This document shows, piece after piece, positions 10,487 to 25,733 of a DNA stretch of 25,733 nt. The notes below the pieces were generated by a model. That model was not told the DNA's origin and searched no databases. It saw only the letters and a list, made by a program, of their open reading frames with translations. The stretch is from a virus (taxonomy: Duplodnaviria; Heunggongvirae; Uroviricota; Caudoviricetes). Position numbers and translations under genes: made by a program. How positions within the stretch are numbered: the first letter of the stretch is position 1; each line of letters begins with the position of its first letter. The stretch spans positions 1 through 25,733 of IMG/VR virus record IMGVR_UViG_2585427772_000005; one strand, given 5' to 3'.

Positions 10487-10779
10487 GGGTGAGAGTTTAT
10501 ATTGCCGGTCCAATGACCGGGTATAAAAATTTCAACCGTGAGGCGTTCCACAAGGCGGAAGAGGAACTGAAACGGGAAGGGCATACAGTCTTGAACCCGG
10601 CAGTACTTCCGGATGGGCTGACACAGCCGCACTACATGGATATTTGCATGGCAATGATTCGTTGTGTGGATGCGATTTACATGCTGAAAGGCTGGCAGCG
10701 GTCAGCAGGTGCTAAGGCAGAACTGGCGCTGGCGGAGAAACTGGGGCATGCAGTTATTTTCCAGGAGGAGGTACAGTGA
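10483..10779 (+). CDS. DUF4406-like protein (nucleoside 2-deoxyribosyltransferase-like fold)
   Basis: 98-aa ORF with CAGGAG upstream. The N-terminal motif VYIAGPMTG is typical of this family. Confidence 0.7.
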   Translation: MRVRVYIAGPMTGYKNFNREAFHKAEEELKREGHTVLNPAVLPDGLTQPHYMDICMAMIRCVDAIYMLKGWQRSAGAKAELALAEKLGHAVIFQEEVQ

Positions 10780-11051
10780 ATATCGACGCAACAATGACGA
10801 TTGGTACGGCCCTCAATACGGGGTTGGCGCTTCTTGGTTGGTGCTACATCATGTTCTGCTCATGGCGGTGGCTGTCACTGATGTTACTGAAAGAATGGAA
10901 TAAACGCTGTAAACAGACGCAGCGGCAGAAGGCAATGAATGCGTTTTTTGAGACCTTCGATATTGACAGTATAGAACCAGGAGAGCCAGCTCGCGTGATT
11001 AGCAGAGGTGACGTTGTAATTCTTGTATACCGGAGTGAAGAGAAAGCATAA
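10776..11051 (+). CDS. Hypothetical small membrane protein
   Basis: GTG start overlapping the upstream stop with GGAGG upstream. One predicted transmembrane segment (LALLGWCYIMFCSWRWLSLMLL). Confidence 0.45.
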   Translation: MNIDATMTIGTALNTGLALLGWCYIMFCSWRWLSLMLLKEWNKRCKQTQRQKAMNAFFETFDIDSIEPGEPARVISRGDVVILVYRSEEKA

Positions 11052-11156
11052 TCCAAATCTGAATAATTAAATCCAGCACTGTAAATAAAATTTAATCCTT
11101 AACCGGAGGGATTTCTGCACCCTCAGAACATCAGGAGGCCGCCTGAAAGGGCGGTA

Positions 11157-11579
11157 ATGAAAATGACTGAATTAACAAAAGAACAATTAATCGAAGAAGC
11201 CAAATTAAAAATAGCGATTACGAAATGCCACCCCAATTCAGGGATGGCGCGAGTAGAGGGCGAGTTATTCAAAATTGCACTGGCATCGCTGGAAGCAGAG
11301 CCGATAGCGTGGCGATATCGCTACGTGAAAAAAGGTGTTATGGACTCTCAGGGGGAGTTGTGGGTTGGTGACTGGAAATATGTACCGAAAAAAGAGGATT
11401 GTAACGACAGGCCGAACTATGAAATTCAGGCCTTATTCACTGCCCCACCAGTCCCGGTTACATCAGAAGAACTGGTTAAAGCTGTGCACTTTTATGAACA
11501 ACTAAAACGCGAAAATCCACCAGCATCCGGCAACCAGATTAATGGGTTAACTATGCCGGTTAAACGACCAGCCGACTGA
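11157..11579 (+). CDS. Hypothetical protein, 140 aa
   Basis: AAGGG about 7 nt upstream of the ATG; protein-like composition. I recognise no family. Confidence 0.55.
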   Translation: MKMTELTKEQLIEEAKLKIAITKCHPNSGMARVEGELFKIALASLEAEPIAWRYRYVKKGVMDSQGELWVGDWKYVPKKEDCNDRPNYEIQALFTAPPVPVTSEELVKAVHFYEQLKRENPPASGNQINGLTMPVKRPAD

Positions 11580-11790
11580 AAAACGGAAACCTGATTACAG
11601 ATTCCCAGATAAGGCAATGAGCTACCTGGCGTAGAGTGGGCTGATAAGTATGGGGAATGTTTTACGATGAATATTTAGACTAAAGAGTTTGTAACGCTAT
11701 GTAAGTGATTTTTTCTGGTTTAGATATTTATATGTCCGGCCAAATTGAGGTGTGTTTAAATGTAATTGCACATTGATTGTAGGGGGAATA

Positions 11791-11970
11791 ATGAAAAACG
11801 CATTGCAGTTTTTGTTTGTTGCGTTCTGGTTGTTCGCATCATGTATGCCCATCATCTTCACAGCAAGGTATATGGAAAAAATTGATGTTTTGATATTAAT
11901 GTTTGGACATATAAATGCCCTTTTTTTAGGGGTGTTCATGGCGGTCACGTGCATTGAATACTGGCGGTAA
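11791..11970 (+). CDS. Small hydrophobic (two-transmembrane) protein, 59 aa, in an AT-rich insert
   Basis: AGGGGG lies 4 nt upstream of the ATG at 11791. Two hydrophobic stretches (LQFLFVAFWLFASCMPIIF; LFLGVFMAVTCI). The overlapping minus-strand ORF 11697..11954 lacks comparable signals. Confidence 0.4.
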   Translation: MKNALQFLFVAFWLFASCMPIIFTARYMEKIDVLILMFGHINALFLGVFMAVTCIEYWR

Positions 11971-12229
11971 ATACAGCGAACGCTATTGGTTTAGTTGGAT
12001 ATTTACTGTGCCGGACAAAAACGGTTTGCAGGGAAATCTTAGTTAAGTAGAATGACTGTGGGTGCTTGAGGCTATCTGTCTCAGGCATGAACACCAAAAG
12101 GCAGATAGAGAAAAGCCCCAGTTAACATTACGCGTCCTGCAAGACGCTTAACATTAATCTGAGGCCATATCTATGCTCTACACACGTAGGTTAGCCTCTT
12201 ACGTGCCGAAAGGCAAGGAGAAGCAGGCT

Positions 12230-12385
12230 ATGAAGCAGCAAAAGGCGATGCTAATCGCCCTGATCGTCATCTGTTTAACCGTCATAGTGACGGCACTGGT
12301 AACGAGGAAAGACCTCTGCGAGGTACGAATCCGAACCGGCCAGACGGAGGTCGCTGTCTTCACAGCTTACGAACCTGAGGAGTAA
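12230..12385 (+). CDS. hok: Hok/Gef-family type I toxin (HokD/RelF-like, 51 aa)
   Basis: The translation MKQQKAMLIALIVICLTVIVTALVTRKDLCEVRIRTGQTEVAVFTAYEPEE has the Hok-family hydrophobic helix and conserved LC-E-R core, and matches the chromosomal HokD/RelF sequence as I recall it. The track ORF starting at 12173 is an in-frame upstream extension. A strong terminator follows. Confidence 0.8.
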   Translation: MKQQKAMLIALIVICLTVIVTALVTRKDLCEVRIRTGQTEVAVFTAYEPEE

Positions 12386-12452
12386 GAGACCGGGCGGGGG
12401 AGAAATCCCTCGCCACCTCTGATGTGTCAGGCATCCTCAACGCACCCGCACT

Positions 12453-12483
12453 TAACCCGCTTCGGCGGGTTTTTGTTTTTATT
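12453..12483 (+). terminator. Rho-independent terminator downstream of hok
   Basis: ACCCGC-TTCG-GCGGGT hairpin followed by TTTTGTTTTTATTTT. Confidence 0.7.
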
Positions 12484-12604
12484 TTCAACGCGTTTGAAGT
12501 TTTAGATGGTGCCGGAATAGAATCAAAAATACTTAAGTAGCGCGCAGGGAGAAGAGGGATGGACCCCGAAGGGGAAGAGCTATTTATCTGGAAGGATTCT
12601 GAAG

Positions 12605-12778
12605 ATGAAAATCGAAGAATTACGTGAAATTTTTAGTGAAGATGGCCTCTATGCTGTGCGCGTTGAGAATGGGGGTATTACCTACACAGCGTTAATTCCT
12701 GATGATCATGTAGTGTTATCTGTTGAGGCATTCATTGAATACTTGGAAAGACTCGGTTTCAAGGTAGTTCGGGAATAA
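12605..12778 (+). CDS. Small hypothetical protein, 57 aa (below the ORF-track cutoff)
   Basis: ATG at 12605 with GAAGGA 8 nt upstream. The translation MKIEELREIFSEDGLYAVRVENGGITYTALIPDDHVVLSVEAFIEYLERLGFKVVRE has balanced, protein-like composition. Confidence 0.35.
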   Translation: MKIEELREIFSEDGLYAVRVENGGITYTALIPDDHVVLSVEAFIEYLERLGFKVVRE

Positions 12779-12837
12779 GTTATAATACGTGAGCCAGCCT
12801 GAACAACTGGCAACCTGCAGCGCCATTGGAGATGACA

Positions 12838-13110
12838 ATGGCGCATAATTTCAAATTTCGCAATTCTGATTCTGCCTTTGCCAGCAGGCACGGGTGGCGT
12901 TCTCACGCATTCAAATATGACTGGTATCAGCACGATCCCTGTACTGAAGAACAGGCCGAATGGCTGATTCATAACTACCGCAGACGTGGATATGAGTTTA
13001 GGAAAGCCCTCACCCTCGATTATCGTCACTGGATAATCTACGTCAGACTCCCTTATTCCGAACGCCCACCGCGTCCGTCCCGCACATTCCAGCAACGCAT
13101 CTGGAGGTAA
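12838..13110 (+). CDS. Hypothetical nin-region protein, about 90 aa
   Basis: GGAG 6 nt upstream of the ATG at 12838. It ends 1 nt before the DUF968-like gene on the same strand. The larger antisense ORF 12706..13236 has low-complexity S/T/R-rich composition. Confidence 0.5.
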   Translation: MAHNFKFRNSDSAFASRHGWRSHAFKYDWYQHDPCTEEQAEWLIHNYRRRGYEFRKALTLDYRHWIIYVRLPYSERPPRPSRTFQQRIWR

Positions 13111-13111
13111 C

Positions 13112-14158
13112 GTGCGGGTATTACTTCGACCTGTTCTGGTACCGGAACTCGGGCTGGTGATCGTTAAGCCGGGCCGTGAATCCATGCCGGTATTCCACAA
13201 TACCCGGGTACTGGTGGAGCCGGAACCGAAAAGCATGCGTAATCTGCCGTCCGGGGTCGTTCCTGCCGTTCGCCAGCCGCTGGCGGAGGATAAATCATTA
13301 CTGCCATTTTTCAGCGACGAACGAGTGATTCGTGCTGCTGGTGGCGCTGGCGCATTGTCTGACTGGTTACTGCGCCATGTTAAATCCTGCCAGTGGCCAC
13401 ACGGCGATTATCACCACAGTGAAACCGTCATTCACCGTTATGGTACCGGCGCAATGGTGTTGTGCTGGCACTGCGACAACCAGCTGCGCGACCAGACCTC
13501 CGAATCACTCGGGCAACTTGCTCACCAAAACCTGTCTGCATGGATGATTGACGTCATACGCCATGCAATGAATGGCTCGCAGGAACGGGAATTATCGCTG
13601 GCTGAATTATCCTGGTGGGCGGTCCGCAATCAGGTGGCGGACGCGCTACCGGAAGCGGTATTACGTCGTTCGCTGGGGTTGCGTGCGGAAAAAATCCGCT
13701 CAATGTACCGTGAAAGCGACATCGTACCGGGAGAGCAGACCGCCACCAGCATACTGAAGCAGCGCACAAAAAATCTTGCGCCGCTGCCTCACGCCCACCA
13801 GCAAAACCCGCCACAGGAAGAGACGGTGGTCAGCATTGCCGTTGATCCTGAGTCTCCGGAATCTTTCATGAAACGACCTAAACGTCGCCGCTGGGTTAAC
13901 GAGAAATACACACGCTGGGTGAAGACACAGCCGTGTGCGTGTTGTGGTAAGCCAGCCGACGATCCCCATCACCTGATTGGTCATGGTCAGGGCGGAATGG
14001 GGACAAAATCTCACGATATTTTCACGCTACCGTTGTGTCGGGAGCATCACAACGAGCTTCATGCGGATCCTCTGGCGTTCGAAGAAAAGCATGGTTCTCA
14101 GGTTGATTTAATTTTTCGTTTTCTTGATCACGCCTTTGCAACTGGCGTGCTTGGGTAA
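13112..14158 (+). CDS. DUF968-like prophage protein with a C-terminal HNH/zinc-finger-like motif
   Basis: 348-aa ORF. The C-terminus has CACCGK...DPHHLIGHGQGG...LCREHHNELH, the Cys/His pattern typical of DUF968 proteins (YdfU-like) that sit upstream of rusA and Q in E. coli prophages. Confidence 0.7.
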   Translation: MRVLLRPVLVPELGLVIVKPGRESMPVFHNTRVLVEPEPKSMRNLPSGVVPAVRQPLAEDKSLLPFFSDERVIRAAGGAGALSDWLLRHVKSCQWPHGDYHHSETVIHRYGTGAMVLCWHCDNQLRDQTSESLGQLAHQNLSAWMIDVIRHAMNGSQERELSLAELSWWAVRNQVADALPEAVLRRSLGLRAEKIRSMYRESDIVPGEQTATSILKQRTKNLAPLPHAHQQNPPQEETVVSIAVDPESPESFMKRPKRRRWVNEKYTRWVKTQPCACCGKPADDPHHLIGHGQGGMGTKSHDIFTLPLCREHHNELHADPLAFEEKHGSQVDLIFRFLDHAFATGVLG

Positions 14159-14170
14159 AAGAGGTGACTG

Positions 14171-14545
14171 ATGCTCATAGATTTGGTTTTACCTTACCCG
14201 CCGACGGTGAACACTTACTGGCGACGCCGTGGCAGCACATATTTTGTATCAAAAGCCGGGGAGCGTTATCGCCGGGCAGTGGCGCTTATTGTTCGCCAGC
14301 AGCGGCTGAAATTAAGCCTGTCCGGAAGGCTGGCGATAAAGGTGATTGCAGAGCCACCGGATAAGCGTCGTCGCGACCTGGACAATATCCTGAAAGCACC
14401 GCTGGATGCGCTGACGCATGCGGGAGTGTTAATGGACGATGAGCAGTTTGATGAAATCAATATCGTTCGTGGTCAGCCAGTATCTGGTGGACGTATGGGG
14501 GTGAAGATTTACCCCATAATGCATGAAGAGCAGGTCAAAAAATGA
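14171..14545 (+). CDS. rusA: Crossover junction endodeoxyribonuclease RusA (Holliday junction resolvase)
   Basis: 124-aa ORF with AGAGGTG upstream. Conserved RusA pattern (PPTVNTYWRRRG ... DKRRRDLDNILKAPLDALTHAGVLMDDEQ). Confidence 0.85.
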   Translation: MLIDLVLPYPPTVNTYWRRRGSTYFVSKAGERYRRAVALIVRQQRLKLSLSGRLAIKVIAEPPDKRRRDLDNILKAPLDALTHAGVLMDDEQFDEINIVRGQPVSGGRMGVKIYPIMHEEQVKK

Positions 14546-15363
14546 AACTGGAAGATTTACCGAAATACTACTCCCCAAAATCCCCTGGCCTGACCGATGC
14601 ATCGGCCTCAACGTCAAAAGATGCGCTGAGTATCACTGATGTGATGGCCGCGCAGGGCATGACACAGAATCGGGCTGAGATGGGGTTTTCTGCGTTCCTG
14701 GGGAAAATGGGCATCAGTATGAATGACAGGGCGCGGGCAACAGAATTACTGGCAGATTATGCACTCAGTCGGTGCGATCGTGTGGCGGCGTTGAGAAAAC
14801 TTCCGGCAGAAATAAAACCGGTAGTGATGCGCATTATGGCTTCGTATGCGTTTGAAGATTATGCCCGTAGCGCGGCGAGCAAAAAACAGTGCCCCTGCTG
14901 TCACGGAAAAAAATTTATTGAAAGCGAGGTTTTTACAAACAAGATCCAGTATCCGGATGGTAAGCCACCAGTGTGGGCAAAGTGCACAAAAGGCGTGTAT
15001 CCGTCTTACTGGGAAGAATGGAAAAAAGTCAGGGAGGTGGTAAAAGTTGCCTGTCCGGAGTGTGGCGGAAAGGGTGAGGTTTCCACCGCCTGTAAGGATT
15101 GCCGTGGGCGTGGTGTCGCCATTCATCGTGAAGAGTCGGTAAAACGTGGTATGCCTGTTATCAGAGATTGCCAGCGTTGTGGTGGTCGTGGCTGTGAAAG
15201 GCTGCCATCAACGGAGGCATTTAATGCCATATGCAAAGTGACGAGTGCTATCACGCTTGATACGTGGAAAAAATCAGTGAAACGCTTTTACGATACGTTG
15301 GTGGTTCGGTTTGACATTGAAGAGGCATGGGCGGAGCGGCAGTTAAAGAGGGTAACGCGATAG
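14542..15363 (+). CDS. Late-gene antitermination protein Q (Cys-rich zinc-binding Q family)
   Basis: 273-aa ORF coupled to rusA by an ATGA overlap. Multiple CxxC pairs (CPCCHGK, CPECGGKGE, CKDCRGRG, CQRCGGRGC), placed immediately upstream of a PR'-like promoter. Confidence 0.8.
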   Translation: MKLEDLPKYYSPKSPGLTDASASTSKDALSITDVMAAQGMTQNRAEMGFSAFLGKMGISMNDRARATELLADYALSRCDRVAALRKLPAEIKPVVMRIMASYAFEDYARSAASKKQCPCCHGKKFIESEVFTNKIQYPDGKPPVWAKCTKGVYPSYWEEWKKVREVVKVACPECGGKGEVSTACKDCRGRGVAIHREESVKRGMPVIRDCQRCGGRGCERLPSTEAFNAICKVTSAITLDTWKKSVKRFYDTLVVRFDIEEAWAERQLKRVTR

Positions 15364-15443: not shown

Positions 15444-15469
15444 ACCCCGCCGCCTGGCGGGTTTTTTAT
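15444..15469 (+). terminator. Rho-independent terminator (tR'-like) downstream of the candidate PR'
   Basis: CCCGCC-GCCT-GGCGGG hairpin followed by TTTTTTAT. Confidence 0.6.
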
Positions 15470-15589
15470 GACTGAAATCGCGTCAGTACAGTAAACGCGC
15501 TGGTGGCGGTGAATACCTGTCTTTCAGCTTGCTGGCTTTTTCGACAAGAGTTATTGGTGTGTCACGTTAACCGGAAAAGGGAAAAAGAC

Positions 15590-15787
15590 ATGCTAAAACA
15601 GCAGGATATGACAGAAACCGCCAGAGTGGTGTTTAATGAATTAAGCGTTACCGAACCGGCGACAGTCGGGGAGATAGCGCAGAATACTTACCTTTCACGC
15701 GAACGCTGCCAGTTAATACTGACCCAGCTGGTTATGGCGGGTCTGGCAGACTATCAGTTCGGTTGTTACAGACGCCTTCCGCAGTGA
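15590..15787 (+). CDS. Small putative winged-helix DNA-binding protein, 65 aa, in the late leader
   Basis: AAGGG 8 nt upstream of the ATG at 15590; the track start at 15503 lacks an SD. HTH-like segment TVGEIAQNTYLSRERCQLILTQLVMAGLADY. It is bracketed by two intrinsic terminators. Confidence 0.45.
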   Translation: MLKQQDMTETARVVFNELSVTEPATVGEIAQNTYLSRERCQLILTQLVMAGLADYQFGCYRRLPQ

Positions 15788-15799
15788 AGGCTTTTTTAT
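15774..15799 (+). terminator. Rho-independent terminator overlapping the stop codon of the small winged-helix ORF
   Basis: GCCTTC-CGCAGT-GAAGGC hairpin followed by TTTTTTATT. Confidence 0.6.
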
Positions 15800-15814
15800 T
15801 TGTGGTAAATGGGC

Positions 15815-15845
15815 GGCTGGTGGGTGTTAGGGGCACCCACCAGCC
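15815..15845 (+). other. 12-bp perfect-stem hairpin (GGCTGGTGGGTG / CACCCACCAGCC) with a 7-nt loop
   Basis: Direct reading. No U-tract follows. It lies just after a second copy of TGTGGTAAAT. Confidence 0.5.
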
Positions 15846-15937
15846 ATCTGCTCATGCGTTGGGTTCACAAGCAAACCTCAGGCCCACTGCTTTGCGCAAA
15901 AGCAGAATGAGCCTATCAGAGACAGGCTTAATGATCC

Positions 15938-16987
15938 ATGCTTAATACTGTAAAAATATCCAGTTGTGAGTTAATCAACGCCGACTGCCTGGAATTTATC
16001 CGGTCGTTACCCGAAAATTCTGTTGACCTGATAGTCACGGACCCGCCGTACTTTAAAGTGAAGCCTGAGGGCTGGGATAACCAGTGGAAGGGCGACGATG
16101 ATTACCTGAAGTGGCTGGACCAGTGTCTGGCGCAGTTCTGGCGGGTGCTGAAACCTGTCGGAAGTCTTTACCTGTTCTGTGGTCATCGCCTGGCATCTGA
16201 TATCGAAATCATGATGCGTGAACGCTTCAGTGTGCTGAACCATATTATCTGGGCGAAGCCGTCCGGACGCTGGAACGGATGCAACAAGGAAAGCCTGCGG
16301 GCGTATTTCCCCGCCACAGAGCGCATTCTGTTCGCGGAACATTATCAGGGGCCGTATCGTCCGAAAGATGCCGGGTATGCGGCGAAGGGCAGTGCACTGA
16401 AACAGCATGTGATGGCCCCGCTGATTTCTTACTTTCGTGATGCGCGCGCGGCCCTGGGGATAACGGCAAAACAGATTGCAGATGCCACAGGAAAGAAAAA
16501 CATGGTGTCGCACTGGTTCAGTGCCAGTCAGTGGCAGCTACCGAACGAAAGCGATTATCTGAAATTACAGTCGCTGTTTGCCCGGGTGGCAGAAGAGAAA
16601 CATCAGCGCGGTGAACTGGAAAAGCCCCACCACCAGCTGGTGGATACGTATACGTCACTGAACCGGCAGTATGTGGAGCTGCAGAGTGAATATAAGCATC
16701 TGCGGCGGTATTTTGGTGTGACGGCGCAGGTGCCGTACACGGATGTGTGGACACATAAACCGGTGCAGTTCTATCCCGGGAAACATCCGTGCGAAAAACC
16801 GGCAGAAATGCTGCAGCAGATAATCAGCGCAAGCAGTCGTCCGGGTGACCTGGTTGCAGATTTTTTTATGGGCTCAGGTTCAACGGTAAAAGCTGCACTG
16901 GCGCTCGGGCGTCGTGCGATTGGCGTTGAACTGGAGACCGGACGTTTTGAGCAGACAGTCAGGGAAGTTCAGGATTTAATCGTTTGA
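15938..16987 (+). CDS. Orphan DNA methyltransferase (probably N6-adenine; DPPY motif IV N-terminal to FxGxG motif I)
   Basis: 349-aa ORF. DLIVTDPPYF near the N-terminus and DFFMGSGSTVKAA near the C-terminus. No restriction-endonuclease-like partner ORF is adjacent. Confidence 0.85.
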   Translation: MLNTVKISSCELINADCLEFIRSLPENSVDLIVTDPPYFKVKPEGWDNQWKGDDDYLKWLDQCLAQFWRVLKPVGSLYLFCGHRLASDIEIMMRERFSVLNHIIWAKPSGRWNGCNKESLRAYFPATERILFAEHYQGPYRPKDAGYAAKGSALKQHVMAPLISYFRDARAALGITAKQIADATGKKNMVSHWFSASQWQLPNESDYLKLQSLFARVAEEKHQRGELEKPHHQLVDTYTSLNRQYVELQSEYKHLRRYFGVTAQVPYTDVWTHKPVQFYPGKHPCEKPAEMLQQIISASSRPGDLVADFFMGSGSTVKAALALGRRAIGVELETGRFEQTVREVQDLIV

Positions 16988-17036
16988 AACGGATGAGATT
17001 GCAGAATTAATTACGCACCATTATTATTCTGCTTCC

Positions 17037-17112
17037 GGCCCTTTAGCTCAGTGGTGAGAGCGAGCGACTCATAATCGCCAGGTCGCTGGTTCAAATCCAG
17101 CAAGGGCCACCA
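17037..17112 (+). tRNA. tRNA with CAU anticodon, most likely tRNA-Ile2 (lysidine-modified, reads AUA)
   Basis: Cloverleaf read by hand: acceptor GGCCCTT/AAGGGCC, D-arm GCTC..GAGC, anticodon loop CTCATAA, T-arm GCTGG-TTCAAAT-CCAGC, encoded CCA. Closely resembles E. coli tRNA-Ile2 as recalled. Confidence 0.85.
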
Positions 17113-17212
17113 TCACAAACCGCCATTAGCTTATCAGGAAGAGCAGACGACACGATAACAGGGTTGTTGGTGCGGGGGCGGGTCCCCGATGACGGTCCAT
17201 TATCGGTATTCA

Positions 17213-17289
17213 GCGTTGTTAGCTCAGCCGGACAGAGCAATTGCCTTCTAAGCAATCGGTCACTGGTTCGAATCCAGTACAGCGCGCCA
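17213..17289 (+). tRNA. tRNA-Arg (anticodon UCU, reads AGA/AGG)
   Basis: Cloverleaf: acceptor GCGTTGT/ACAGCGC with one G-U pair, anticodon stem ATTGC/GCAAT, loop CTTCTAA, T-arm ACTGG-TTCGAAT-CCAGT, encoded CCA. Confidence 0.9.
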
Positions 17290-17396
17290 TATTCATTCTT
17301 CCAGATTCCTTTCGGCAGAGCCTTATACTGAAATATACCTGGCTCAGGATATTGTTGAAAATATTATATGTTTGTCAAAAATAAAAGTTCTGTTAA

Positions 17397-17753
17397 GTGT
17401 TGATTGAGTGTTTGTTATACGGTCTAATGGTTTTTTCAGCATTAAATATTTATCATTCATATGGTGTGGGTAGAGTGAATATTGATGAGGCGTCGGGGTG
17501 TTTCATCCTTAGGCAGCGTATTGATATAGTCAATGCAGAACGAGCAAAGGCCTTCAGCCGTTTGACAGTTTTGTTCTGTACTCCTGATCGTCTTTCGGGA
17601 AGAGACGTTATTATTCTGAATAGTGATGCTATACAGAGGGTTTGCGATGAGTTCATGGTGGCTAATTCAGAATTATTTGCTCTTGTTCAGGAGTACAACA
17701 GAATAGCCAGGACCTGTGGTATGGATGAACTTCGGATTACTCATCTGGGGTAG
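17397..17753 (+). CDS. Hypothetical cargo ORF, up to 118 aa; start uncertain
   Basis: Open frame in the AT-rich segment. No convincing SD before either the GTG at 17397 or the ATG at 17427. Composition is protein-like. Confidence 0.3.
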   Translation: MLIECLLYGLMVFSALNIYHSYGVGRVNIDEASGCFILRQRIDIVNAERAKAFSRLTVLFCTPDRLSGRDVIILNSDAIQRVCDEFMVANSELFALVQEYNRIARTCGMDELRITHLG

Positions 17754-18144
17754 ATACATATCTGGATTATCACCGGTTACGGTAAAAAGTGATTGCTTAC
17801 TGTTTTTGTGAATGGCATTGCAGCAGCCGGATAATGTCAGTGCTGGCTGACGGTGTGCTGGTGGCGGGGGTGGTGGTTGCTGCTTTCCCGTTGCTGAAAA
17901 AGAAAACGCCAGACTGTTAGCCGGGTATCAGTTAGCGGGAGAAATTTTTAAATACTTCACAATTCAGGCGGTTGACTGTTGTCTGGTTTGCGGGGAGTTT
18001 GTTAAAAGAAACTGGCATGGTGAATCCCCCTGTGCGGAGGGGCAATCAGCGAGTAGGTATATGGGATAATCGCGGATTCAGGTGCTGGTACTGAATTCAC
18101 CGGGAGGCACCCGGCACCATGCAATGGCACATAGCGCCACTCTC

Positions 18145-18178
18145 CAGCCCCTCTCCGGAGGGGCTGTTTATATTGATT
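18145..18178 (+). terminator. Strong rho-independent terminator
   Basis: 9-bp perfect GC-rich stem CAGCCCCTC / GAGGGGCTG with loop TCCG, followed by TTTATATTGATTTT. It lies 23 nt beyond the 3' end of the minus-strand ORF 18201..18536. Confidence 0.65.
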
Positions 18179-18200
18179 TTGTCAGATGTGAGTAAACTCC

Positions 18201-18536
18201 TTATGGACTTTGTTGTTTTAGCCCATAAGGACATATTTGCAGAGTGCAACGGTTATTAAAGCATTCATTCAATACGTTATCTGTATTTGTAGGGCATTCC
18301 TGGCTGTTTTTGATTAAATTCCAGAATGTTTTATTGAATGGTACTACGTTGTAAATGGTTACAGGCAGCACTTTGTTATTGAGCATGATGCCTGTGTGAG
18401 TCAGTGTAAATATACTTTCAGGAGGTAAGAAAGCATCCGATTGATACCAGATTATTAATTTTATTTTACTCCATATGACTGAAAAAGATATTCCGCATGA
18501 TGGCTGGATAACTGTATCAATCACAATCCACTTCAT
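18201..18536 (-). CDS. Hypothetical AT-rich cargo protein, 111 aa, on the opposite strand to the late operon
   Basis: AAGGAA 6 nt upstream of the ATG at 18536. Cys-containing C-terminus ([16 protein letters not shown]). A 245-bp AT-rich promoter-like region lies upstream. I recognise no family. Confidence 0.5.
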
Positions 18537-18781
18537 TTAGTTTCCTTGTTTATGCCTTGCTGGTGATGTTCTGAAAAGTATAAATGATATTTTTGATTGT
18601 AAACCATAGAGCAGAATTATTTTTCTGATGTTGTTTATTGTTTATTTAAATGCAGGGTGGTTTATATCTCGTCTTGTAGTTTATCCATGCATATCTGCTT
18701 GATGATGAGGTTTTTAATTAAGGTATGGTTTTGTGTTTTTTCTGTATTACATGTCAGGTATTTTAAAGAATCATTTTTCAG

Positions 18782-20647
18782 ATGGTGGAAAGAACCATGG
18801 CATTTAAACACTATGATGTTGTCAGGGCGGCGTCGCCGTCAGATCTTGCGGAAAAGCTGACACATAAACTGAAAGAGGGCTGGCAGCCGTTTGGTAGTCC
18901 GGTGGCCATAACCCCTTATACCCTGATGCAGGCGATTGCAGCAGAAGGTGATGTGGTCGTCAGTGGTGCAACTGAGCCGGAGTGGTACTACGTCATCGTA
19001 CTGGCCGGGCAGTCCAATGCCATGGCTTACGGTGAAGGGCTTCCGCTTCCGGATTCATACGATGCGCCCCATCCGCGCATTAAGCAACTGGCCCGTCGTA
19101 ACACAGTGACTCCCGGTGGTGAAGTATGCGTATTTAACGACATCATTCCTGCTGACCATTGTCTGCATGATGTTCAGGATATGAGTACGATTAACCATCC
19201 CCGGGCTGACCTGAGCAAAGGGCAGTACGGCTGTGTCGGACAGGGCTTACATATTGCCAAAAAACTGCTTCCGTATATCCCTAATAACGCGGGGATCCTG
19301 CTGGTACCATGCTGTCGTGGTGGTTCGGCATTCACCCAGGGCACGGAGGGGACATTCAGCGAGTCCACGGGGGCCAGTCAGGATTCGGCTCGCTGGGGAG
19401 TGGGTAAGCCGTTATATCAGGATCTGCTTTTCCGCACGAAGGCAGCATTGCAGAAAAACCCGAAAAACGTTTTGCTGGCGATATGCTGGATGCAGGGGGA
19501 ATTCGATATGACGAATGCCAGTTACGCCCAGCAGCCAGCAGCATTTCTTGCAATGGTACAGCAGTTCCGTGCTGACCTTGCCGGGCTGGCGGCGCAGTGT
19601 CACGGTGGAAGTCCGGCATCAGTCCCCTGGATTTGTGGCGACACGACATACGCGTGGAAACAAGAACACGGTACGCAATATGAAGTGGTATATGGTGCAT
19701 ATAAAGGTAAAGAATCCCAGCAGATTTATTTTGTTCCCTTTATGACCGATGGTAGCGGAGTTAATACACCGACAAACAACCCGTCAGAAGATCCTGATAT
19801 TGTCGGGTCTGGTTATTACGGTTCGGCATCCCGAACGAACAAAAACTGGGTATCATCAAATCGCCCGACGCATTTCAGCTCATGGGCGCGTCGTGGCATT
19901 ATTCCCGATCGTATGGCAACCGCTATTCTGAACGCAGCCGGGCGCACCTCAGCCTTCATCAGTGGTAAGGCACCGGAAATCAAACCCTCGCCCGGCGGCG
20001 ACACGCCATCGGGTCCGTCTGCAGATACGTCCGTTCGCACAATCTCCCTGCTGCCGACAGCCGGAGAGGCTGCTGCGCAGGGCTGGAGCATTAAGAATGG
20101 CGGAATTCAGTTGTCAGATGGTGTATTTAAGATCACCAAGCAGAGCAATAAAGCCTGGTCCCTGACGCGCCCGGTGGATGACGCAGTCTCCCTGCTGACA
20201 CGGGGTGGCAGACTGAGCTGTAAGTTTCGACTGTCAGGCGCACTGACCAACAACCAGTTCGGTCTGGGAATTTATCTGTATACCGATGTAGCGTTACCTG
20301 ACGTCGTGGCGATGACCGGGACTGGTAACCCGTTCCTGATGTCGTTCTTCACCCAGACCACAGACGGCAAACTGAATCTGATGCATCACAAGAAAGCCGG
20401 AAACACAAAGTTGGGCGAGTTCGGGAATTACAGTAACGACTGGCAGACGCTGGAGCTGGTGTTCACCGCCGGCAGTGCCACGGTTACTCCGAAACTGAAT
20501 GGAGTGGCTGGCCCGGCATTCCAGGTCATAAAAGACAGTCTGACACTGGGGCTGAATGCGCTGACGTTAACTGATATCACTAAAAATGCCGCGTACGGCG
20601 TCGATATCGGCAGCCTGGTGCTGGAAATCAATAATCCCGCAGCATAA
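18782..20647 (+). CDS. NanS-p-like sialate O-acetylesterase (DUF1737 N-domain, SASA/SGNH esterase domain, C-terminal lectin-like domain)
   Basis: 621-aa ORF. VIVLAGQSNAMAYGEG is the SGNH/SASA catalytic-serine motif. Same architecture and position (after the tRNAs) as the nanS-p/yjhS-like genes of Stx phages. The alternative start at 18797 (MAFKHYDV) has a modest SD. Confidence 0.8.
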   Translation: MVERTMAFKHYDVVRAASPSDLAEKLTHKLKEGWQPFGSPVAITPYTLMQAIAAEGDVVVSGATEPEWYYVIVLAGQSNAMAYGEGLPLPDSYDAPHPRIKQLARRNTVTPGGEVCVFNDIIPADHCLHDVQDMSTINHPRADLSKGQYGCVGQGLHIAKKLLPYIPNNAGILLVPCCRGGSAFTQGTEGTFSESTGASQDSARWGVGKPLYQDLLFRTKAALQKNPKNVLLAICWMQGEFDMTNASYAQQPAAFLAMVQQFRADLAGLAAQCHGGSPASVPWICGDTTYAWKQEHGTQYEVVYGAYKGKESQQIYFVPFMTDGSGVNTPTNNPSEDPDIVGSGYYGSASRTNKNWVSSNRPTHFSSWARRGIIPDRMATAILNAAGRTSAFISGKAPEIKPSPGGDTPSGPSADTSVRTISLLPTAGEAAAQGWSIKNGGIQLSDGVFKITKQSNKAWSLTRPVDDAVSLLTRGGRLSCKFRLSGALTNNQFGLGIYLYTDVALPDVVAMTGTGNPFLMSFFTQTTDGKLNLMHHKKAGNTKLGEFGNYSNDWQTLELVFTAGSATVTPKLNGVAGPAFQVIKDSLTLGLNALTLTDITKNAAYGVDIGSLVLEINNPAA

Positions 20648-20670
20648 GGAAGAGCAGGAGAGCAAAACAG

Positions 20671-21138
20671 ATGCTTAAGACAAACAGTCTGCGAGAGTCC
20701 ATGCTTCATGGGTGTCGGTGGTGCCAGGCTAATCCCGAGAAATTCACCATTTTCGTGGAGAGCGGCAACATTGAAACGACCGGAGAAGCGCCCTCGTTTG
20801 TTTACCGCTATCAGATGGTGATGTTTGTCATGGATTACGCCGGAGAGCTGGACGACCTCACGCTGCCGCTGCTGGCGTGGTTATCCGAAAATCAGCCACA
20901 GTTGTTGCTCAATCCGGAGCGTAATCAGGACATCAAATTTTCTGCCGTTATCAATGACGATGACAGCGCCGATCTCCTGTTTACGCTCCCCCTGCGGGAA
21001 CGCGTTCGCATCACGCGCAACAGTCAGGGCACACCGCAGGCAGAACACCTGCCGGAGCCAAAACCCCGTCTGCCCTCTTCCGAAGGCGACTGGTCGCATG
21101 TATTCCAGGATGTGACGTGGGGTGAAAGCGATGGATAA
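20671..21138 (+). CDS. P2 gpR-like tail completion protein
   Basis: 155-aa ORF with AGGAG upstream. Similar in length and sequence to P2 R as recalled (LPLLAWLSENQP against P2 VPVLAWLRENQP). Confidence 0.75.
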   Translation: MLKTNSLRESMLHGCRWCQANPEKFTIFVESGNIETTGEAPSFVYRYQMVMFVMDYAGELDDLTLPLLAWLSENQPQLLLNPERNQDIKFSAVINDDDSADLLFTLPLRERVRITRNSQGTPQAEHLPEPKPRLPSSEGDWSHVFQDVTWGESDG

Positions 21139-21766
21139 GGCATTCACCAGCGTGGATGAAACCTTTGAGGCTATCCGCGACAGCCTGAATCAGCAGGCCA
21201 TCAATAACATCGCCAGAAAGCTGGCACAGGATTTACGTCGCGCCCAGCAGGCACGTATCCGATCACAAAAAGCGCCGGACGGGACCGAATGGACACCACG
21301 CAGACGCCGCGTAACCCGGATACAGGAGCGCATTCGCTTTATCTGGAATAACGAAGCACGCACGCTGAAAAACTGGCATCACGACACGGGGAAATACGGG
21401 CGAACCATTACCGGGTGGGATGAGGATAAAAACAATATCCGCACGTTTTACCGGGATGACATCGACCGTTTTCTGGAAATACGCACCCGGCGCATCAACC
21501 AGGACAGCACAAAGCGCGTCCCCATGTTCGTAAAACTGCGCACCGCCCGCTACCTGAAAGCCCGTGCAGATGCCTCCGGTGTGACGGTGGGTTACAGCGG
21601 CGTGGCCGCACGTATTGCACGCGTTCATCAGTTCGGTGAGCGCGATCAGGTTGCGCCGGGCATTTTCACCGATTACCCGGTACGTGAGCTGTTGGGTATC
21701 AGCCAGGCAGATGAGCGCCTGATTTATAACACGGTGCTGGGCCGGATTGCGGAGGCTGTACGGTGA
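21131..21766 (+). CDS. P2 gpS-like tail completion / virion morphogenesis protein
   Basis: ATG overlaps the R stop (ATGGATAA). Position between R and V and family resemblance; longer than P2 S. Confidence 0.65.
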   Translation: MDKAFTSVDETFEAIRDSLNQQAINNIARKLAQDLRRAQQARIRSQKAPDGTEWTPRRRRVTRIQERIRFIWNNEARTLKNWHHDTGKYGRTITGWDEDKNNIRTFYRDDIDRFLEIRTRRINQDSTKRVPMFVKLRTARYLKARADASGVTVGYSGVAARIARVHQFGERDQVAPGIFTDYPVRELLGISQADERLIYNTVLGRIAEAVR

Positions 21767-22344
21767 GCGCAGAACTCATGCGACTGCTGAGCAACATCAT
21801 CCGCACCGGGATCATCTCTGAAGTTGATGAGAAGTCCTGGCGCGTGCGCGTTCGCAGCGGCGAACTGGAAACAGGCTGGTTGCGCTGGAACACCACGCGC
21901 GCGGGAGCCTTCAATGTGTGGCTGCCGCCATCACCAGGCGAACAGGTGGTAATTGCCTGCATTGGCGGCAACCCGGAAACCGCCATGATAATTGGCAGCC
22001 TGTGGAGTGATGCCAGTCCGGCCCCCGGCAAAAGCCTGAAAGAAATCGTGGTCAGCGCGCCGGATGGCGCGGTGTTCCGCTACGACGCAGACGCTGGCGC
22101 ACTGAGCGCCAGCGGCATGAAAACAGCCACCCTGCAGGCATCCGTCAGCGTGACACTGGATACGCCCGTCGTGGAATGCACAAACCTTCTGAGAACAGCG
22201 ACGCTTGACGTCACAAAAGGGGGAAAGATGAGCGGCAATATCACGCACAGCGGCGGCAACTTCACCTCAAACGGCATCACAGTGCATACGCATAAACACG
22301 GTGGTGTGAAAGGCGGCAGCGATTCGACAGGAGGCCCGCAGTGA
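21763..22344 (+). CDS. Baseplate assembly protein V (P2 gpV-like spike)
   Basis: Strong similarity to P2 V across the length (IRTGII ... GEQVVIACIGG ... PDGAVFRYD ... TLDTPVVECTN ... KGGKMSGNITHSGG ... HTHKHGG). GTG start overlaps the S stop. Confidence 0.85.
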   Translation: MSAELMRLLSNIIRTGIISEVDEKSWRVRVRSGELETGWLRWNTTRAGAFNVWLPPSPGEQVVIACIGGNPETAMIIGSLWSDASPAPGKSLKEIVVSAPDGAVFRYDADAGALSASGMKTATLQASVSVTLDTPVVECTNLLRTATLDVTKGGKMSGNITHSGGNFTSNGITVHTHKHGGVKGGSDSTGGPQ

Positions 22345-22691
22345 CAACCCGCTACACAGGAATGAATCCGGACGGGACGGGAAACCTGAATGATATGGAG
22401 CACCTGAAACAGTCAGCCAGGGACATCCTGACCACCCCGCTGGCCAGCCGGGTTATGCGACGGGAATATGGCAGCCTTGTACCTGATTTGATTGACGAAC
22501 CCATGAATAACACCACGCGTCTGCAATGCATGAGTGCTGCCGTGATTGCGCTGACACGATGGGAACCCCGCATTGCCCTGGACGCCATCGACGTTGTCTG
22601 GAAAGCGGGAGGCCGCGCCGGGGTGACGCTGTCGGGCACTGTCATGCAGACCATGCAGAATGTTGAGTTAACCATCACGCTGAGGGAGTAA
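22341..22691 (+). CDS. Baseplate assembly protein W (P2 gpW, gp25-like)
   Basis: VTTRYTGMN ... RVMRREYGSL ... WEPRIAL against P2 W MTARYLGMN ... RVMRRDYGSL ... WEPRVTL. GTGA overlap with V. Confidence 0.85.
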   Translation: MTTRYTGMNPDGTGNLNDMEHLKQSARDILTTPLASRVMRREYGSLVPDLIDEPMNNTTRLQCMSAAVIALTRWEPRIALDAIDVVWKAGGRAGVTLSGTVMQTMQNVELTITLRE

Positions 22692-22694
22692 ATC

Positions 22695-23591
22695 ATGCCT
22701 GCTGTTGACCTTTCCCAGTTACCGGAACCCGCCATCATCGCGAAGCCTGATTTTGAGGCAATTCTGGCTGACACAAAGGCCATGATGATTGCGTCCTATC
22801 CTGCCGAACAGCGTGAAGCCGTCTCCGCCGCGCTGGAGCTGGAATCGGAACCCCTGAACGTTATCGCCCAGACAACAGCGTTTCGTGAAATGCTGTTACG
22901 CCAGCGGGTCAATGAGGGTGCACGCGCCTGCATGTTAAGCCACAGCGCCGGGACAGACCTGGACAACCTCGCGGGCAATATGAACACAAAGCGCCTGGTT
23001 ATCACTCCGGCAACGGATACCACCGACGCGGTGATGGAAAGCGACACATCGCTGAGACTGCGGGCGCAACGGGCGTATGACGGTCTGAGTGTTGCTGGCC
23101 CGTCAGGCGCATACGAGTATTTTGCACGCAGCGCCAGCGGTCTGGTACGCGACGCGCGAGCCATCAGCCCGTCTCCGGCCAACGTGACGGTTTCCATCCT
23201 GTCCACTGAAGGCGACGGCACAGCAACGGAGGCGTTGCTTAATACCGTTCGCGCCGTTCTGAATGCAGAGGATACCCGCCCGGTGGCCGACCGCCTGACC
23301 GTACAGAGCGCCAGAATCGTGACATGGCGGCTGAATGCAAAACTGTACTTTTACCCCGGCCCGGAATCCGAACCTATTCTGGCCGCGGCTGAATCGTCGT
23401 TCAGGAAGTGGCTGGCTGAGCAGGGGCTTATCGGTCAGGACGTGGCGTTGTCCGCCATTGCTGCCGCACTGCATGTGCACGGTGTGCAACGCGTGGAGAT
23501 AATCGAACCCACACAGAATATGGCCATCAGCGACATACAGGCGGCGCGCTGTGAGTCATTCACCATCAGCGAAGGTGGACGCAATGAGTAA
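22695..23591 (+). CDS. Baseplate assembly protein J (P2 gpJ)
   Basis: Near-collinear similarity to P2 J (LPEPAIIAKPDFE ... RQRVNE ... DGLSVAG ... YEYFARSA ... RPVADRLTVQSA ... YPGPESEPI ... LHVHGVQRVE). GGGAG upstream. Confidence 0.9.
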   Translation: MPAVDLSQLPEPAIIAKPDFEAILADTKAMMIASYPAEQREAVSAALELESEPLNVIAQTTAFREMLLRQRVNEGARACMLSHSAGTDLDNLAGNMNTKRLVITPATDTTDAVMESDTSLRLRAQRAYDGLSVAGPSGAYEYFARSASGLVRDARAISPSPANVTVSILSTEGDGTATEALLNTVRAVLNAEDTRPVADRLTVQSARIVTWRLNAKLYFYPGPESEPILAAAESSFRKWLAEQGLIGQDVALSAIAAALHVHGVQRVEIIEPTQNMAISDIQAARCESFTISEGGRNE

Positions 23592-24192
23592 TTCGTTGTT
23601 ACCACCATCAGCCAGCAATTTCATGCGTTGTGCCGAAGCCGTCGGAACACGCATTACAGACATTCCGGTAGACCTCAACACGCTGTGGTCGCCGGACACC
23701 TGCCCGGTGCATCTGCTGCCTTATCTCGCCTGGGCGTTTTCCGTTGACCGCTGGGATCGCAACTGGCCGGAAGAGACAAAGCGACAGGTGATTCGTGATG
23801 CATGGCTGATACACCGACACAAAGGGACCATCAGCGCACTGCGAAGAGCCGTGGAGCCTCTCGGCTACCTGATTGAAGTAAAGGAGTGGTGGCAACTCAA
23901 CGAGGAGCCGGGAACATTTCGCATTGTTGTCGGAGTACTTGATCAGGGCATCACCGATGAAATGTATCAGGAACTTGAGCGCCTTATTGCGGATGCAAAA
24001 CCAGTAAGTCGCCATCTGACGGGGCTGGCGATCAGCCTGAGTGTGAACGGAAAGATTTTCGTTGGTACGGGATGCTATCACGGCGATGCCCTGACGGTTT
24101 ATCCCTACACCCCGGAGTCCATTATTGTCGAAGGGGATTATTTCCCTGCCCCGGCCATTCATTTAATTGATAATCTGAGAGTAAACGCATGA
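23584..24192 (+). CDS. Tail protein I (P2 gpI)
   Basis: ATG overlaps the J stop (ATGAGTAA); the track start at 23551 lies inside J. Similarity to P2 I (WSPDTCPVHLLPYLAWAFSVDRWD ... HKGTISALRRAVEPLGYLI ... IADAKPVSRHL). Confidence 0.85.
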   Translation: MSNSLLPPSASNFMRCAEAVGTRITDIPVDLNTLWSPDTCPVHLLPYLAWAFSVDRWDRNWPEETKRQVIRDAWLIHRHKGTISALRRAVEPLGYLIEVKEWWQLNEEPGTFRIVVGVLDQGITDEMYQELERLIADAKPVSRHLTGLAISLSVNGKIFVGTGCYHGDALTVYPYTPESIIVEGDYFPAPAIHLIDNLRVNA

Positions 24193-25733
24193 CAGTGAAA
24201 TACTACGCCATTCTGACTAATCAGGGCGCGGCACGACTGGCTAACGCGACGATGCTCGGCAGTAAGCTGAATCTGACGCGAATGGCCGTTGGTGATGCAA
24301 ATGGTGTGTTACCAACACCAGACCCTGCACAAACAAAACTGATTAACCAGAAACGCATTGCACCGCTGAATCTTCTGAGTGTTGACCCTAACAATCAGAG
24401 CCAGATTATTGCGGAGCAAATCATCCCTGAAAGCGAGGGTGGATTCTGGATCCGTGAGATTGGTCTTTATGATGATAAAGGTGTACTCATTGCGGTGGCA
24501 AACTGCCCGGAAACGTACAAACCGCAGTTGCAGGAAGGCAGTGGACGCACCCAGACTATCCGCATGATTCTGGTTGTCACGAACACCGAAGCCATCACGC
24601 TGAAAATCGACCCGTCTGTGGTTCTGGCAACCCGCAAATATGTGGATGATAAAATCTCAAAGCACGAGCAGTCACGACGTCACCCGGACGCCTCGCTGAC
24701 CGCAAAAGGCTTTGTTCAACTTAGCAGTGCCACGGACAGTCAATCAGAAACTGAGGCTGCCACGCCGAAGGCTGTGAAAATCGCGTATGATCTGGCCTGG
24801 GGAAAATACACAGCCCAGGATGCAACAACGACCCGTAAAGGGATCGTACAACTGAGCAGTGCCACCAACAGCACCTCTGAAACGCTGGCCGCCACACCAA
24901 AAGCCGTCAAGGCGGCATACGACCTTGCAGCCGGCAAGGCCCCCGTCAGCCACACTCACCCATGGAGTCAGATAACGGGAGTGCCTGCTGCCTCGCTGAC
25001 GGCAAAAGGCACCGTACAACTGAGCAGTGCCATCAACAGCACGTCTGAAATACTGGCCGCCACACCGAAAGCGGTCAAGGATGCATACGATCTGGCAAAC
25101 GGAAAACAACCGGCAGATGCCACGCTCACTGCTCTGGCAGGACTTGCCACTGCAGCAGATCGGTTGCCTTATTTTACCGGAGCAGACCGCGCAGCGCTGG
25201 CAACCCTTACAGCTATTGGTCGCGCTATTATCGCTAAGGGCAGTATAAAAGATGTCCTCAATTACCTTGGTTTGGGGGAAGGCTCTGCATTGCCTGTTGG
25301 TGTACCGGTTCCGTGGCCCACCGCCACACCGCCAGAAGGCTGGTTAAAGTGCGACGGGCGCGCCTTTACAAAAGAACAATATCCTGTTCTGGCCAGAGCC
25401 TACCCGACCCTCCGTCTTCCCGATTTACGCGGTGAATTTATTCGTGGCTGGGATGACGGACGTGGTGTGGATGCCGGGCGACAATTATTATCTTCACAGG
25501 GGGATGCAATAAGAAATATTGAGGGATTCGCAGATGGCGGGATCGGTATGTCTTTTGATGCAATCAGAGGGGCTTTTTACGATGCAGGAACACGATCAGC
25601 GAGAATGCCGAATAACACAACTACTATAGACAAAACCGATGACCTTGGATTCGACGCCTCTCGTGTCGTGCCAACAGCTAATGAAAACCGTCCTCGTAAT
25701 ATTGCCTTTAATTATATCGTAAGGGCGGCATAA
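24189..25733 (+). CDS. Tail fibre protein (P2 gpH-like N-terminus, three tail-fibre repeats, C-terminal collar/receptor-binding-like domain)
   Basis: ATGA overlap with I. The N-terminus matches P2 H (GGFWIREIGLYDDKGVLIAVAN ... YKPQLQEGSGR ... KYVDDKISKHEQSRRHPDASLTAKGF). The stop codon is at the last three bases of the window. Confidence 0.85.
   Translation: MTVKYYAILTNQGAARLANATMLGSKLNLTRMAVGDANGVLPTPDPAQTKLINQKRIAPLNLLSVDPNNQSQIIAEQIIPESEGGFWIREIGLYDDKGVLIAVANCPETYKPQLQEGSGRTQTIRMILVVTNTEAITLKIDPSVVLATRKYVDDKISKHEQSRRHPDASLTAKGFVQLSSATDSQSETEAATPKAVKIAYDLAWGKYTAQDATTTRKGIVQLSSATNSTSETLAATPKAVKAAYDLAAGKAPVSHTHPWSQITGVPAASLTAKGTVQLSSAINSTSEILAATPKAVKDAYDLANGKQPADATLTALAGLATAADRLPYFTGADRAALATLTAIGRAIIAKGSIKDVLNYLGLGEGSALPVGVPVPWPTATPPEGWLKCDGRAFTKEQYPVLARAYPTLRLPDLRGEFIRGWDDGRGVDAGRQLLSSQGDAIRNIEGFADGGIGMSFDAIRGAFYDAGTRSARMPNNTTTIDKTDDLGFDASRVVPTANENRPRNIAFNYIVRAA
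24690..25110 (+). repeat. Three tandem roughly 145-bp in-frame repeats in the fibre gene (TAKGxVQLSSAxNSTSExLAATPKAVKxAYDLAxGK)
   Basis: Direct reading of DNA and protein. The repeats also create the spurious antisense ORFs 24740..24955, 24744..25109 and 24968..25150. Confidence 0.8.

Follow-up and report, generated by a model that had tools for sequence, protein, structure and literature searches.

The window, as we call the whole 25,733-nucleotide stretch analysed here (positions 1 to 25,733 of IMG/VR virus record IMGVR_UViG_2585427772_000005), contains on its forward strand a gene for a NanS-p-type sialate O-acetylesterase. To the left of this gene lies part of a lambdoid prophage, to its right the tail and baseplate genes of a P2-family prophage, and base-by-base comparison indicates that the gene itself is the joint of the two. 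Its parts are as follows.

18797-20647, + strand: NanS-p-type sialate O-acetylesterase gene, 616 amino acids (aa), lambdoid 5′ part and P2-family 3′ part (open reading frame, Pfam, PHROG, PDB, base comparison)
18797-18961, + strand: DUF1737 N-domain, aa 1-55, lambdoid allele (Pfam; 100% identity to lambdoid copies, 29% to P2-family copies)
18983-19936, + strand: catalytic SASA/SGNH type II domain (3PT5 alignment, residue mapping)
20057-20644, + strand: C-terminal lectin-like jelly-roll domain (DUF6645 / NanS-p CTR; 6YP6, Pfam DUF6645)
20171-20545, + strand: crossover zone, 375 bp (aa 459-583), identical to both parent types (loci L007 and L025; base-by-base comparison)
20546-20670, + strand: P2-family-derived 3′ end, comprising the last 33 codons and stop, then a 23-nt spacer to gpR (base comparison)

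A single unbroken open reading frame of 621 aa spans 18782-20647 (+). The likely true start is the ATG at 18797, giving 616 aa; a GGTGGA motif stands 8 nt upstream, RefSeq homologues use the same start, and the resulting N-terminus, MAFKHYDVVRAASPSDLA (MAFKHYD...), is common to L0105 of phage 933W. An exact look-up of the 621-aa product returned no match, whilst the 616-aa product is on record exactly as WP_032218146.1 / KEM64561.1 / HFH2736047.1. Pfam profiles (621-aa numbering) place DUF1737 (PF08410) at aa 8-55 (E=1.8e-15; score 57 bits, cut-off 24), SASA at aa 71-267 (E=1.4e-12) and DUF6645 at aa 472-582 (E=2.1e-19), each of the three above its gathering cut-off. A sequence search of the PDB aligns aa 64-384 with E. 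coli NanS/YjhS (3PT5, E=2.7e-122) and aa 426-618 with the NanS-p C-terminal domain (6YP6, E=1.4e-29), and PHROG 143 matches over the full length (1134 bits). As sequence matches, those of the domains and of the downstream genes are judged to lie far beyond chance. A preliminary description of this DNA had named a NanS-p-type esterase with a DUF1737-like N-domain and a lectin-like C-domain, and the Pfam profile search and the PDB matches agree with it.

Catalysis by NanS relies on Ser19 and His301, with an oxyanion hole formed by Gln18 and a Gly and with no catalytic Asp (PMC9063846). In the window protein (616-aa numbering) Gln72-Ser73-Asn74 (GQSN motif) is encoded at 19010-19018, the Gln72-Ser73 pair occupying 19010-19015, and His359 (RPTHF motif) at 19871-19873. 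Gln72/Ser73 and His359 align with residues 29/30 and 312 of the 3PT5 chain, which correspond to NanS residues 18/19 and 301 once an 11-residue tag offset is subtracted. The equivalents of the catalytic Ser and His and of the oxyanion-hole Gln are intact, which removes mutated catalytic motifs as a ground for doubting the earlier assignment, and the VPCCRGGSAF and WMQGEFD blocks are conserved with NanS. The RPTH variant of block IV has already been described in Stx2 phage 86 (PMC10462455). On these sequence grounds the assignment to the family as an intact three-domain NanS-p-type esterase is solid, and as an enzyme the protein appears ordinary.

The switch within the gene

Compared base by base, the window agrees with the lambdoid copy of strain JBEHAAB-19-0176 (L007) at every position of 18797-20545 and with the P2-family prophage contig BGLZ01000041.1 (L025) at every position of 20171-25733. 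Before 20171 the P2 copies differ from the window gene at ~350 positions; within its terminal 102 nt the lambdoid copies show 27 differences and the P2 copies (L006/L025) none. Identity to the P2 parent begins 477 nt ahead of the stop codon. All lambdoid matches in complete genomes end at 20632, and the matches of the P2-type block begin upstream of the esterase stop codon. Since the gene is without difference from the lambdoid copy up to 20545 and from the P2 family from 20171 onward, it is, at the level of sequence, a perfect single-crossover chimera, and the gene itself forms the lambdoid/P2 joint. The preliminary description took the esterase for the last lambdoid gene before the P2-type block; this holds for the 5′ part, whereas the switch falls inside the gene (20171-20545) and 20546-20647 is of P2-family type.

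Relative to the lambdoid parent only the last 33 residues of the chimeric protein are altered (six substitutions and a tail one residue shorter). The exact CTR and C-terminal end of the window protein occur naturally in P2-family copies, so the fold should be undisturbed.

The esterase in P2-family prophages and exchange between families

P2-family (P88-like, Peduoviridae) prophages carry an esterase of their own, of 625-626 aa, between lysC and the tail gene R. Its profile comprises DUF1737 (weak, E=3e-7), SASA and DUF6645, and its copies are annotated 'DUF6645 domain-containing protein' (e.g. WP_110046521.1, WP_021533420.1, WP_023363135.1). Of 5426 complete E. coli genomes, 375 (~7%) contain the gene, which also occurs in the Peduoviridae records vB_EcoM-569R5, vB_EcoM-705R2 and PV468777; we found no literature tying P2-like phages to a NanS-p-type esterase. 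Its start overlaps the lysC stop by 4 nt (e.g. at 18268 of L002; also in L006 and L021) and it ends 23 nt before gpR. The P2-family esterase is therefore part of the late operon (head, lysis, tail completion), built into it and not a free-standing moron with its own signals. The word 'retained' in the preliminary description would leave the position of the esterase at the edge of the lambdoid part to chance; the modules are instead joined exactly at the esterase because P2-family prophages carry a homologous one in this place.

The 3′ end of the window gene, the spacer and the gpR-H block are identical to those of the P2-family esterase locus, and the catalytic and CTR parts of the P2-family protein come from a common allele pool. 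The P2 copy of NZ_OZ040015 (L002) shares 98-100% identity with the lambdoid copy of strain MLI114 (L008) across ~1.45 kb of gene body, but the two are unrelated, at 25-50% identity, in the initial 200-300 nt, the final ~100 nt and the flanks on either side. The ST131 P2-family copy carries instead the window-type CTR, which together with the C-terminal end is 99-100% identical to that of the window, and other lambdoid alleles (L008, P0011) have partly P2-like 3′ ends. P0011 (616 aa, ending ...APAA, from a long-read NCTC genome) was considered as a second fusion and rejected, its context being normal lambdoid.

The N-domain behaves differently from the body. The four P2-family copies examined have essentially one N-domain allele (MTSKNFALITAM...; identical in three, with one substitution in L025), which shares 29% identity with that of the window and was met in P2-family contexts only. 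This P2-type N-domain occurs in 3 of 50,697 phage genomes, all of them P2-family records, and a search of 5.8 billion proteins for distant relatives gave only truncated copies of the same protein. These sequence comparisons indicate that the esterase body is a cassette exchanged between the lambdoid and P2 families, and that the N-domain is family-specific.

The homologous gp84 of phi24B is a capsid-decorating virion protein anchored by DUF1737; the domain assembles as a hexamer in the central pore of the hexon, closing it, with the loop aromatic Tyr42 as its anchor, and the esterase and lectin parts are later cleaved off (preprint 10.64898/2026.04.10.717836). The label of auxiliary metabolic gene, given to the window gene in the preliminary description, is incomplete in the light of this homologue. 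Compared with phi24B gp84, the window allele has Tyr41 in a loop that is 4 residues shorter, lacks the SISSP-type motif and stands in a window without head genes. A family-specific N-domain on an exchangeable body would fit a capsid-matched anchor. A strict match to one capsid type is hard to square with the finding that virtually one and the same lambdoid N-domain allele, varying by 1 aa, stands ahead of two distinct sets of head genes. The first set is lambda-like, with Nu1/A/W/portal/S49/D/E (L001 16635-21133, L022 15324-21851), and the other comprises an HNH endonuclease, a terminase, a 645-aa major capsid protein and a large portal (L008 12971-19205). We regard as tentative and rather doubtful the wider proposal that the esterase is a virion-decoration cargo cassette of both families, with DUF1737 adapting it to the capsid and the gene supplying portable homology, and that the window shows a real inversion or a hybrid defective prophage in which both phages are disabled. 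If it were true, some P2-like myoviruses would bear a capsid-tethered mucin/sialic-acid esterase.

Origin of the joint

Recombination between homologous prophage segments rearranges E. coli chromosomes, joining halves of two prophages. We favour, with moderate confidence, an explanation of this kind as a whole: the window holds an intact NanS-p gene that is a lambdoid/P2 single-crossover chimera, formed when the two prophages were fused by homologous recombination, most likely in a chromosomal inversion. RecA-type recombination in the 375-bp identical stretch would have fused the lambdoid left arm (int-Q-esterase) to the P2 right arm (R, S, V, W, J, I, H...).

An integrase identical to that of the window always adjoins ompW-yciCBA-tonB-opp; the lambdoid prophage is at ompW, and among complete genomes the P2-family prophage whose arm matches best adjoins serS (L002). 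In strain JBEHAAB-19-0176 (AP028869) both parental esterase copies are present, inverted and ~430 kb apart. Between the serS-site and ompW-site copies there are, we take it from K-12 gene order and essentiality, essential genes. Because the copies lie inverted ~0.4 Mb apart at the serS site with essential genes between them, the event would most likely be a chromosomal inversion. A crossover between the inverted copies would turn round the intervening chromosome, the window being one joint (ompW, int...Q, esterase, R...ogr, serS), and the reciprocal joint would read P2 int...head, lysis, esterase, lambdoid holin...tail. A simple deletion between the prophages was rejected, as the interval at the serS and ihfA sites is 0.4-0.5 Mb and, on the K-12 map, contains essential genes. 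Equally rejected was a double crossover in the tail-fibre genes that would have replaced the lambdoid right arm, as the related locus L004 runs on into P2 gpU and the tape-measure gene.

A near-identical P2-family prophage is found at two chromosomal sites, by serS (L002) and by ihfA/pheT (L030), and the orientation of its esterase relative to the ompW-site lambdoid prophage is opposite between the two. The ihfA-site copy has an extra DUF3800 gene between gpD and ogr (L030 34651-35820); the serS-site copy (L002) is without it.

The joint (616-aa product in iraM-esterase-gpR context) occurs in three short-read assemblies, namely GCA_000713185.1, GCA_043074155.1 (TPA) and the ENA metagenome ERZ27246364. 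The contigs are JORM01000015.1, of 133 kb, 100% identical to the window and evidently its source, DAYBYU010000043.1 (L004), of 32 kb, and a 2.9-kb MEGAHIT contig of ERZ27246364. Between 18223 and 24655 (~6400 positions) L004 departs from the window at 2 sites only, and its other differences all lie in the invertible fibre segment. By sequence the three occurrences are compatible with one lineage sampled three times. Related TPA assemblies break at the zone (L024 starts at 20547 and L028 at 20402), so a contig that runs through it is not default behaviour.

Several observations weigh against the favoured explanation. The joint is found in 0 of 5426 complete (long-read) E. coli genomes, where the best match over 19800-21000 reaches 98.8%, and all three occurrences are short-read, with a 375-bp zone that exceeds the usual length of k-mers and reads. 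None of the reciprocal proteins predicted from four P2 parental variants is present in a collection of 15 billion proteins, and the joint pattern (a two-gap pattern, matched in the window) was not found in IMG/VR or JGI metagenomes. The inversion topology rests on map positions in other strains and on K-12 gene order and essentiality, and the P2-family prophage also sits by ihfA in direct orientation, where the same crossover would be lethal. The absence from complete genomes is weakened as an objection because those genomes do not contain the complete lambdoid arm of the window either. A DNA query modelled on the reciprocal joint (P2-like body followed by a lambdoid 3′ end with holin) returned many full-length matches, all of which proved on inspection to be ordinary lambdoid prophages; the RefSeq product names 'DUF6645' and 'SASA' do not separate phage type.

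The best-surviving alternative is an assembly chimera, in which short reads of an ordinary ompW-site lambdoid and an ordinary P2-family prophage were misjoined across the 375-bp zone; the esterase would then still be a normal NanS-p gene, with a lambdoid 3′ end. The confinement of the joint to short-read contigs, its absence from the 5426 complete genomes and the lack of any reciprocal product on record all suit this reading, and both parental types exist with exactly the required sequences. The gene is moreover a notorious breakpoint: besides L024 and L028, which start at the zone, the vB_EcoM-569R5 record ON470599.1 ends inside it (L023 6557-7807), and most matches to the P2-type N-domain (P0031-P0040) are 'partial' proteins at contig ends. 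A misjoin would nevertheless have to yield the identical joint in three assemblies from three assemblers, once within a 133-kb contig. The TPA relatives break instead of guessing, which suggests that the run-through of L004 had read support or a single-copy zone, and MEGAHIT contigs are not scaffolded across forks, which would imply no competing branch in the ERZ27246364 sample. L003, L004 and L005 are near-identical, as expected of one lineage with a real rearrangement. We consider the assembly chimera unlikely, though it deserves to be taken seriously, and a real recombinant of whatever topology likely.

Real recombination could also have followed another path, either by Campbell-style entry of a circular P2 genome into the lambdoid prophage through esterase homology or by deletion between close direct prophages, leaving a single-copy defective hybrid; the nested insertion would have a second joint ~33 kb downstream. 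Up to 1.45 kb of near-identical esterase body is common to both families, the P2-family prophage is not confined to a single attachment site (serS, ihfA), and the run-through contigs of three assemblers and the missing reciprocal product fit a single-copy hybrid. Such routes are improbable all the same: no genome was found with both prophages adjacent, a deletion at either documented P2 site would remove hundreds of kb including genes that are essential in K-12, integrase-mediated integration normally outcompetes the homologous integration that nesting needs, and a second crossover in the tail-fibre genes is excluded by the continuation of L004 into P2 gpU and the tape-measure gene. That the window holds a complete lambdoid nanS-p gene to which the P2 tail block was joined downstream by an unrelated (illegitimate) event, as gene order from the sequence alone might suggest, is refuted by the 27 lambdoid differences in a 102-nt terminus identical to P2 copies and by P2 identity from 477 nt before the stop, and we give it almost no weight.

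The two arms, expression and known systems

Outside the esterase the window contains the following.

1-14545: lambdoid early arm, with ompW-site integrase (1-1131, - strand), excisionase, exonuclease, Rha/Ash, cI-like and cro-like regulators, YdaT, O (DnaT-like), P, hok, Rem, DUF968 and RusA (Pfam)
14542-15363, + strand: lambdoid late-gene antiterminator Q (Pfam Antiterm PF03589, E=2e-49; RefSeq homologue 'antitermination protein')
15446-15461, + strand: candidate tR′-type terminator, a GC-rich hairpin then a T-run ~80 nt past Q (terminator scan, consensus match only)
15938-16987, + strand: DNA methyltransferase in the late leader between Q and esterase (Pfam N6_N4_Mtase, E=2.7e-44)
17037-17112, + strand: tRNA with anticodon CAT, homologues annotated tRNA-Ile, like ileZ (ARAGORN, RefSeq annotation of locus L001)
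17213-17289, + strand: tRNA-Arg TCT (ARAGORN, RefSeq annotation)
18201-18536, - strand: iraM (anti-adaptor, PmrD family) in the stx slot (PF11183; RefSeq name in loci L001/L007/L008)
20671-25733, + strand: P2-family tail/baseplate block (Pfam; 100% identical to the L025 contig)
20671-21138, + strand: gpR (Pfam PF06891)
21122-21766, + strand: gpS (Pfam)
21763-22344, + strand: gpV (Pfam)
22341-22691, + strand: gpW (Pfam)
22695-23591, + strand: gpJ (Pfam, Baseplate_J)
23584-24192, + strand: gpI (Pfam)
24189-25733, + strand: tail fibre H (Pfam)

The order up to the esterase is Q, a small ORF, the methyltransferase, tRNA(CAT), tRNA-Arg(TCT), DUF3927, iraM (-) and esterase. Positions 15500-20632 are 99.4-99.5% identical to prophages of many complete E. 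coli genomes, in which holin, lysozyme, terminase and head genes come after the esterase; no lysis, terminase or head genes were found anywhere in the window. The lambdoid arm as a whole is poorly represented in complete genomes (at most 88% coverage at ~96% identity). The replacement of the toxin locus described earlier is upheld, since the stx slot holds DUF3927 and iraM, an arrangement common in complete E. coli genomes. The placement of the gene in the nanS-p slot of Stx phages has the support of the upstream order (Q, tRNAs, the stx slot, esterase, as in 933W); downstream, P2 gpR and not holin S follows.

Both tRNA genes correspond to ileZ and argO, which stand ahead of stx in 933W; in the window they lie between the methyltransferase and DUF3927/iraM. 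The iraM product is an RpoS-stabilising anti-adaptor, and a strong hairpin (18145-18166) lies just beyond the iraM 3′ end. In the early arm, 1422-3896 (-) encodes an 824-aa protein (YdfE-like in relatives) with a C-terminal Rv2179c-like 3′-5′ exoribonuclease domain (E=3.5e-67); its counterpart in the relative locus L016 is split by an IS element.

On the P2 side gpR, S, V, W, J, I and H stand in P2 order, and the Pfam set also includes PF05069, PF04717, PF04965, PF09684 and PF12571. The 3′ end of the fibre gene H (25267-25733) has a 100% identical inverted copy slightly downstream in related loci, beside a resolvase/invertase gene (L002 26397-26863 and 26930-27529; L004 8535-9001 and 9068-9667). 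Such an arrangement marks an invertible host-range segment of the Cin/Gin type. The inverted fibre repeat is probably also why the source contig stops 74 nt past the window.

Q presumably drives transcription of the esterase. On induction, Q-modified RNA polymerase from pR′ would read through the leader and the esterase gene. A terminator scan gave no terminator-like site between the esterase stop (20647) and gpR (20671), and read-through into R and S would therefore be expected; these P2 genes, severed from their own late promoter, would ride on the lambdoid late transcript. NanS-p alleles of EDL933 and O104:H4 are induced along with late genes (PMC8065619, PMC10462455), and all those tested are active esterases of Neu5,9Ac2 that de-O-acetylate mucin glycans (PMC8065619). 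By analogy the window allele may be an active acetylesterase that would strip 9-O-acetyl groups from sialic acids (Neu5,9Ac2, mucin glycans) via Ser73/His359, with the C-domain directing it to glycans. The N-domain of an intact phage's esterase would tether the enzyme to capsid hexons; here release and capsid tethering would hinge on lysis and head genes that no longer lie beside the gene. Neither prophage, if the joint is real, can still function as an independent phage.

The presence of nanS-p in Stx and non-Stx prophages is well known (PMC10462455, PMC8065619). With such alleles E. coli can remove O-acetyl groups from the sialic acids of its host, and the window enzyme is a routine allele. 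The earlier interpretation overall is partly supported; the gene family was known, and there is modest novelty in the P2-family copy and in its part as a recombination bridge. The NanS-p homologue of P2-family prophages, including ST131 ones, had so far gone undescribed and has a capsid-anchor-type N-domain of its own. Exchange of the esterase body gives a concrete case of a cargo gene bridging recombination between phage families otherwise without homology, and a bridge of this kind can rearrange chromosomes or disable two prophages in one event. The recurrent assembly breakpoint calls for caution with prophage predictions that end or switch type at nanS-p. We regard the added findings (the joint role, the P2-family paralogue with its own N-domain and the interfamily exchange of the body) as of moderate interest and in need of read-level or long-read confirmation.

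The window protein shares its three-domain architecture (DUF1737, SASA, lectin-like CTR) with 933W L0105/z1466 and phi24B vb_24B_21 = gp84. Its catalytic domain is 70% identical to that of L0105, whereas its N-domain differs from the 933W one in the second half, and its CTR, of a divergent type, is only 35% identical to those of 933W/phi24B. The sugar-binding aromatics proposed for the phi24B CTR (Y510, Y515, Y540, F611) are F, Y, F and L in the window protein, so that three of the four stay aromatic. Stx1 phage copies have 86% nucleotide identity to the window gene, and the nearest deposited phage allele is that of Stx2 phage 86 (94.6% nucleotide identity), with which the window protein also shares the RPTH block IV. 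Chromosomal NanS/YjhS of E. coli has a homologous SGNH type II catalytic domain but neither the DUF1737 N-domain nor the lectin-like C-domain, and is not phage-borne. In 933W the order is Q, pR′, ileZ/argN/argO, stxAB, L0105, S, whereas the window has no stx upstream and P2 gpR instead of holin S downstream; the window copy differs further in that its last 33 codons are of P2-family origin. Compared with known prophage-mediated rearrangements of E. coli, the repeat here would be a single cargo gene common to lambdoid and P2-like families and not two related lambdoid prophages.

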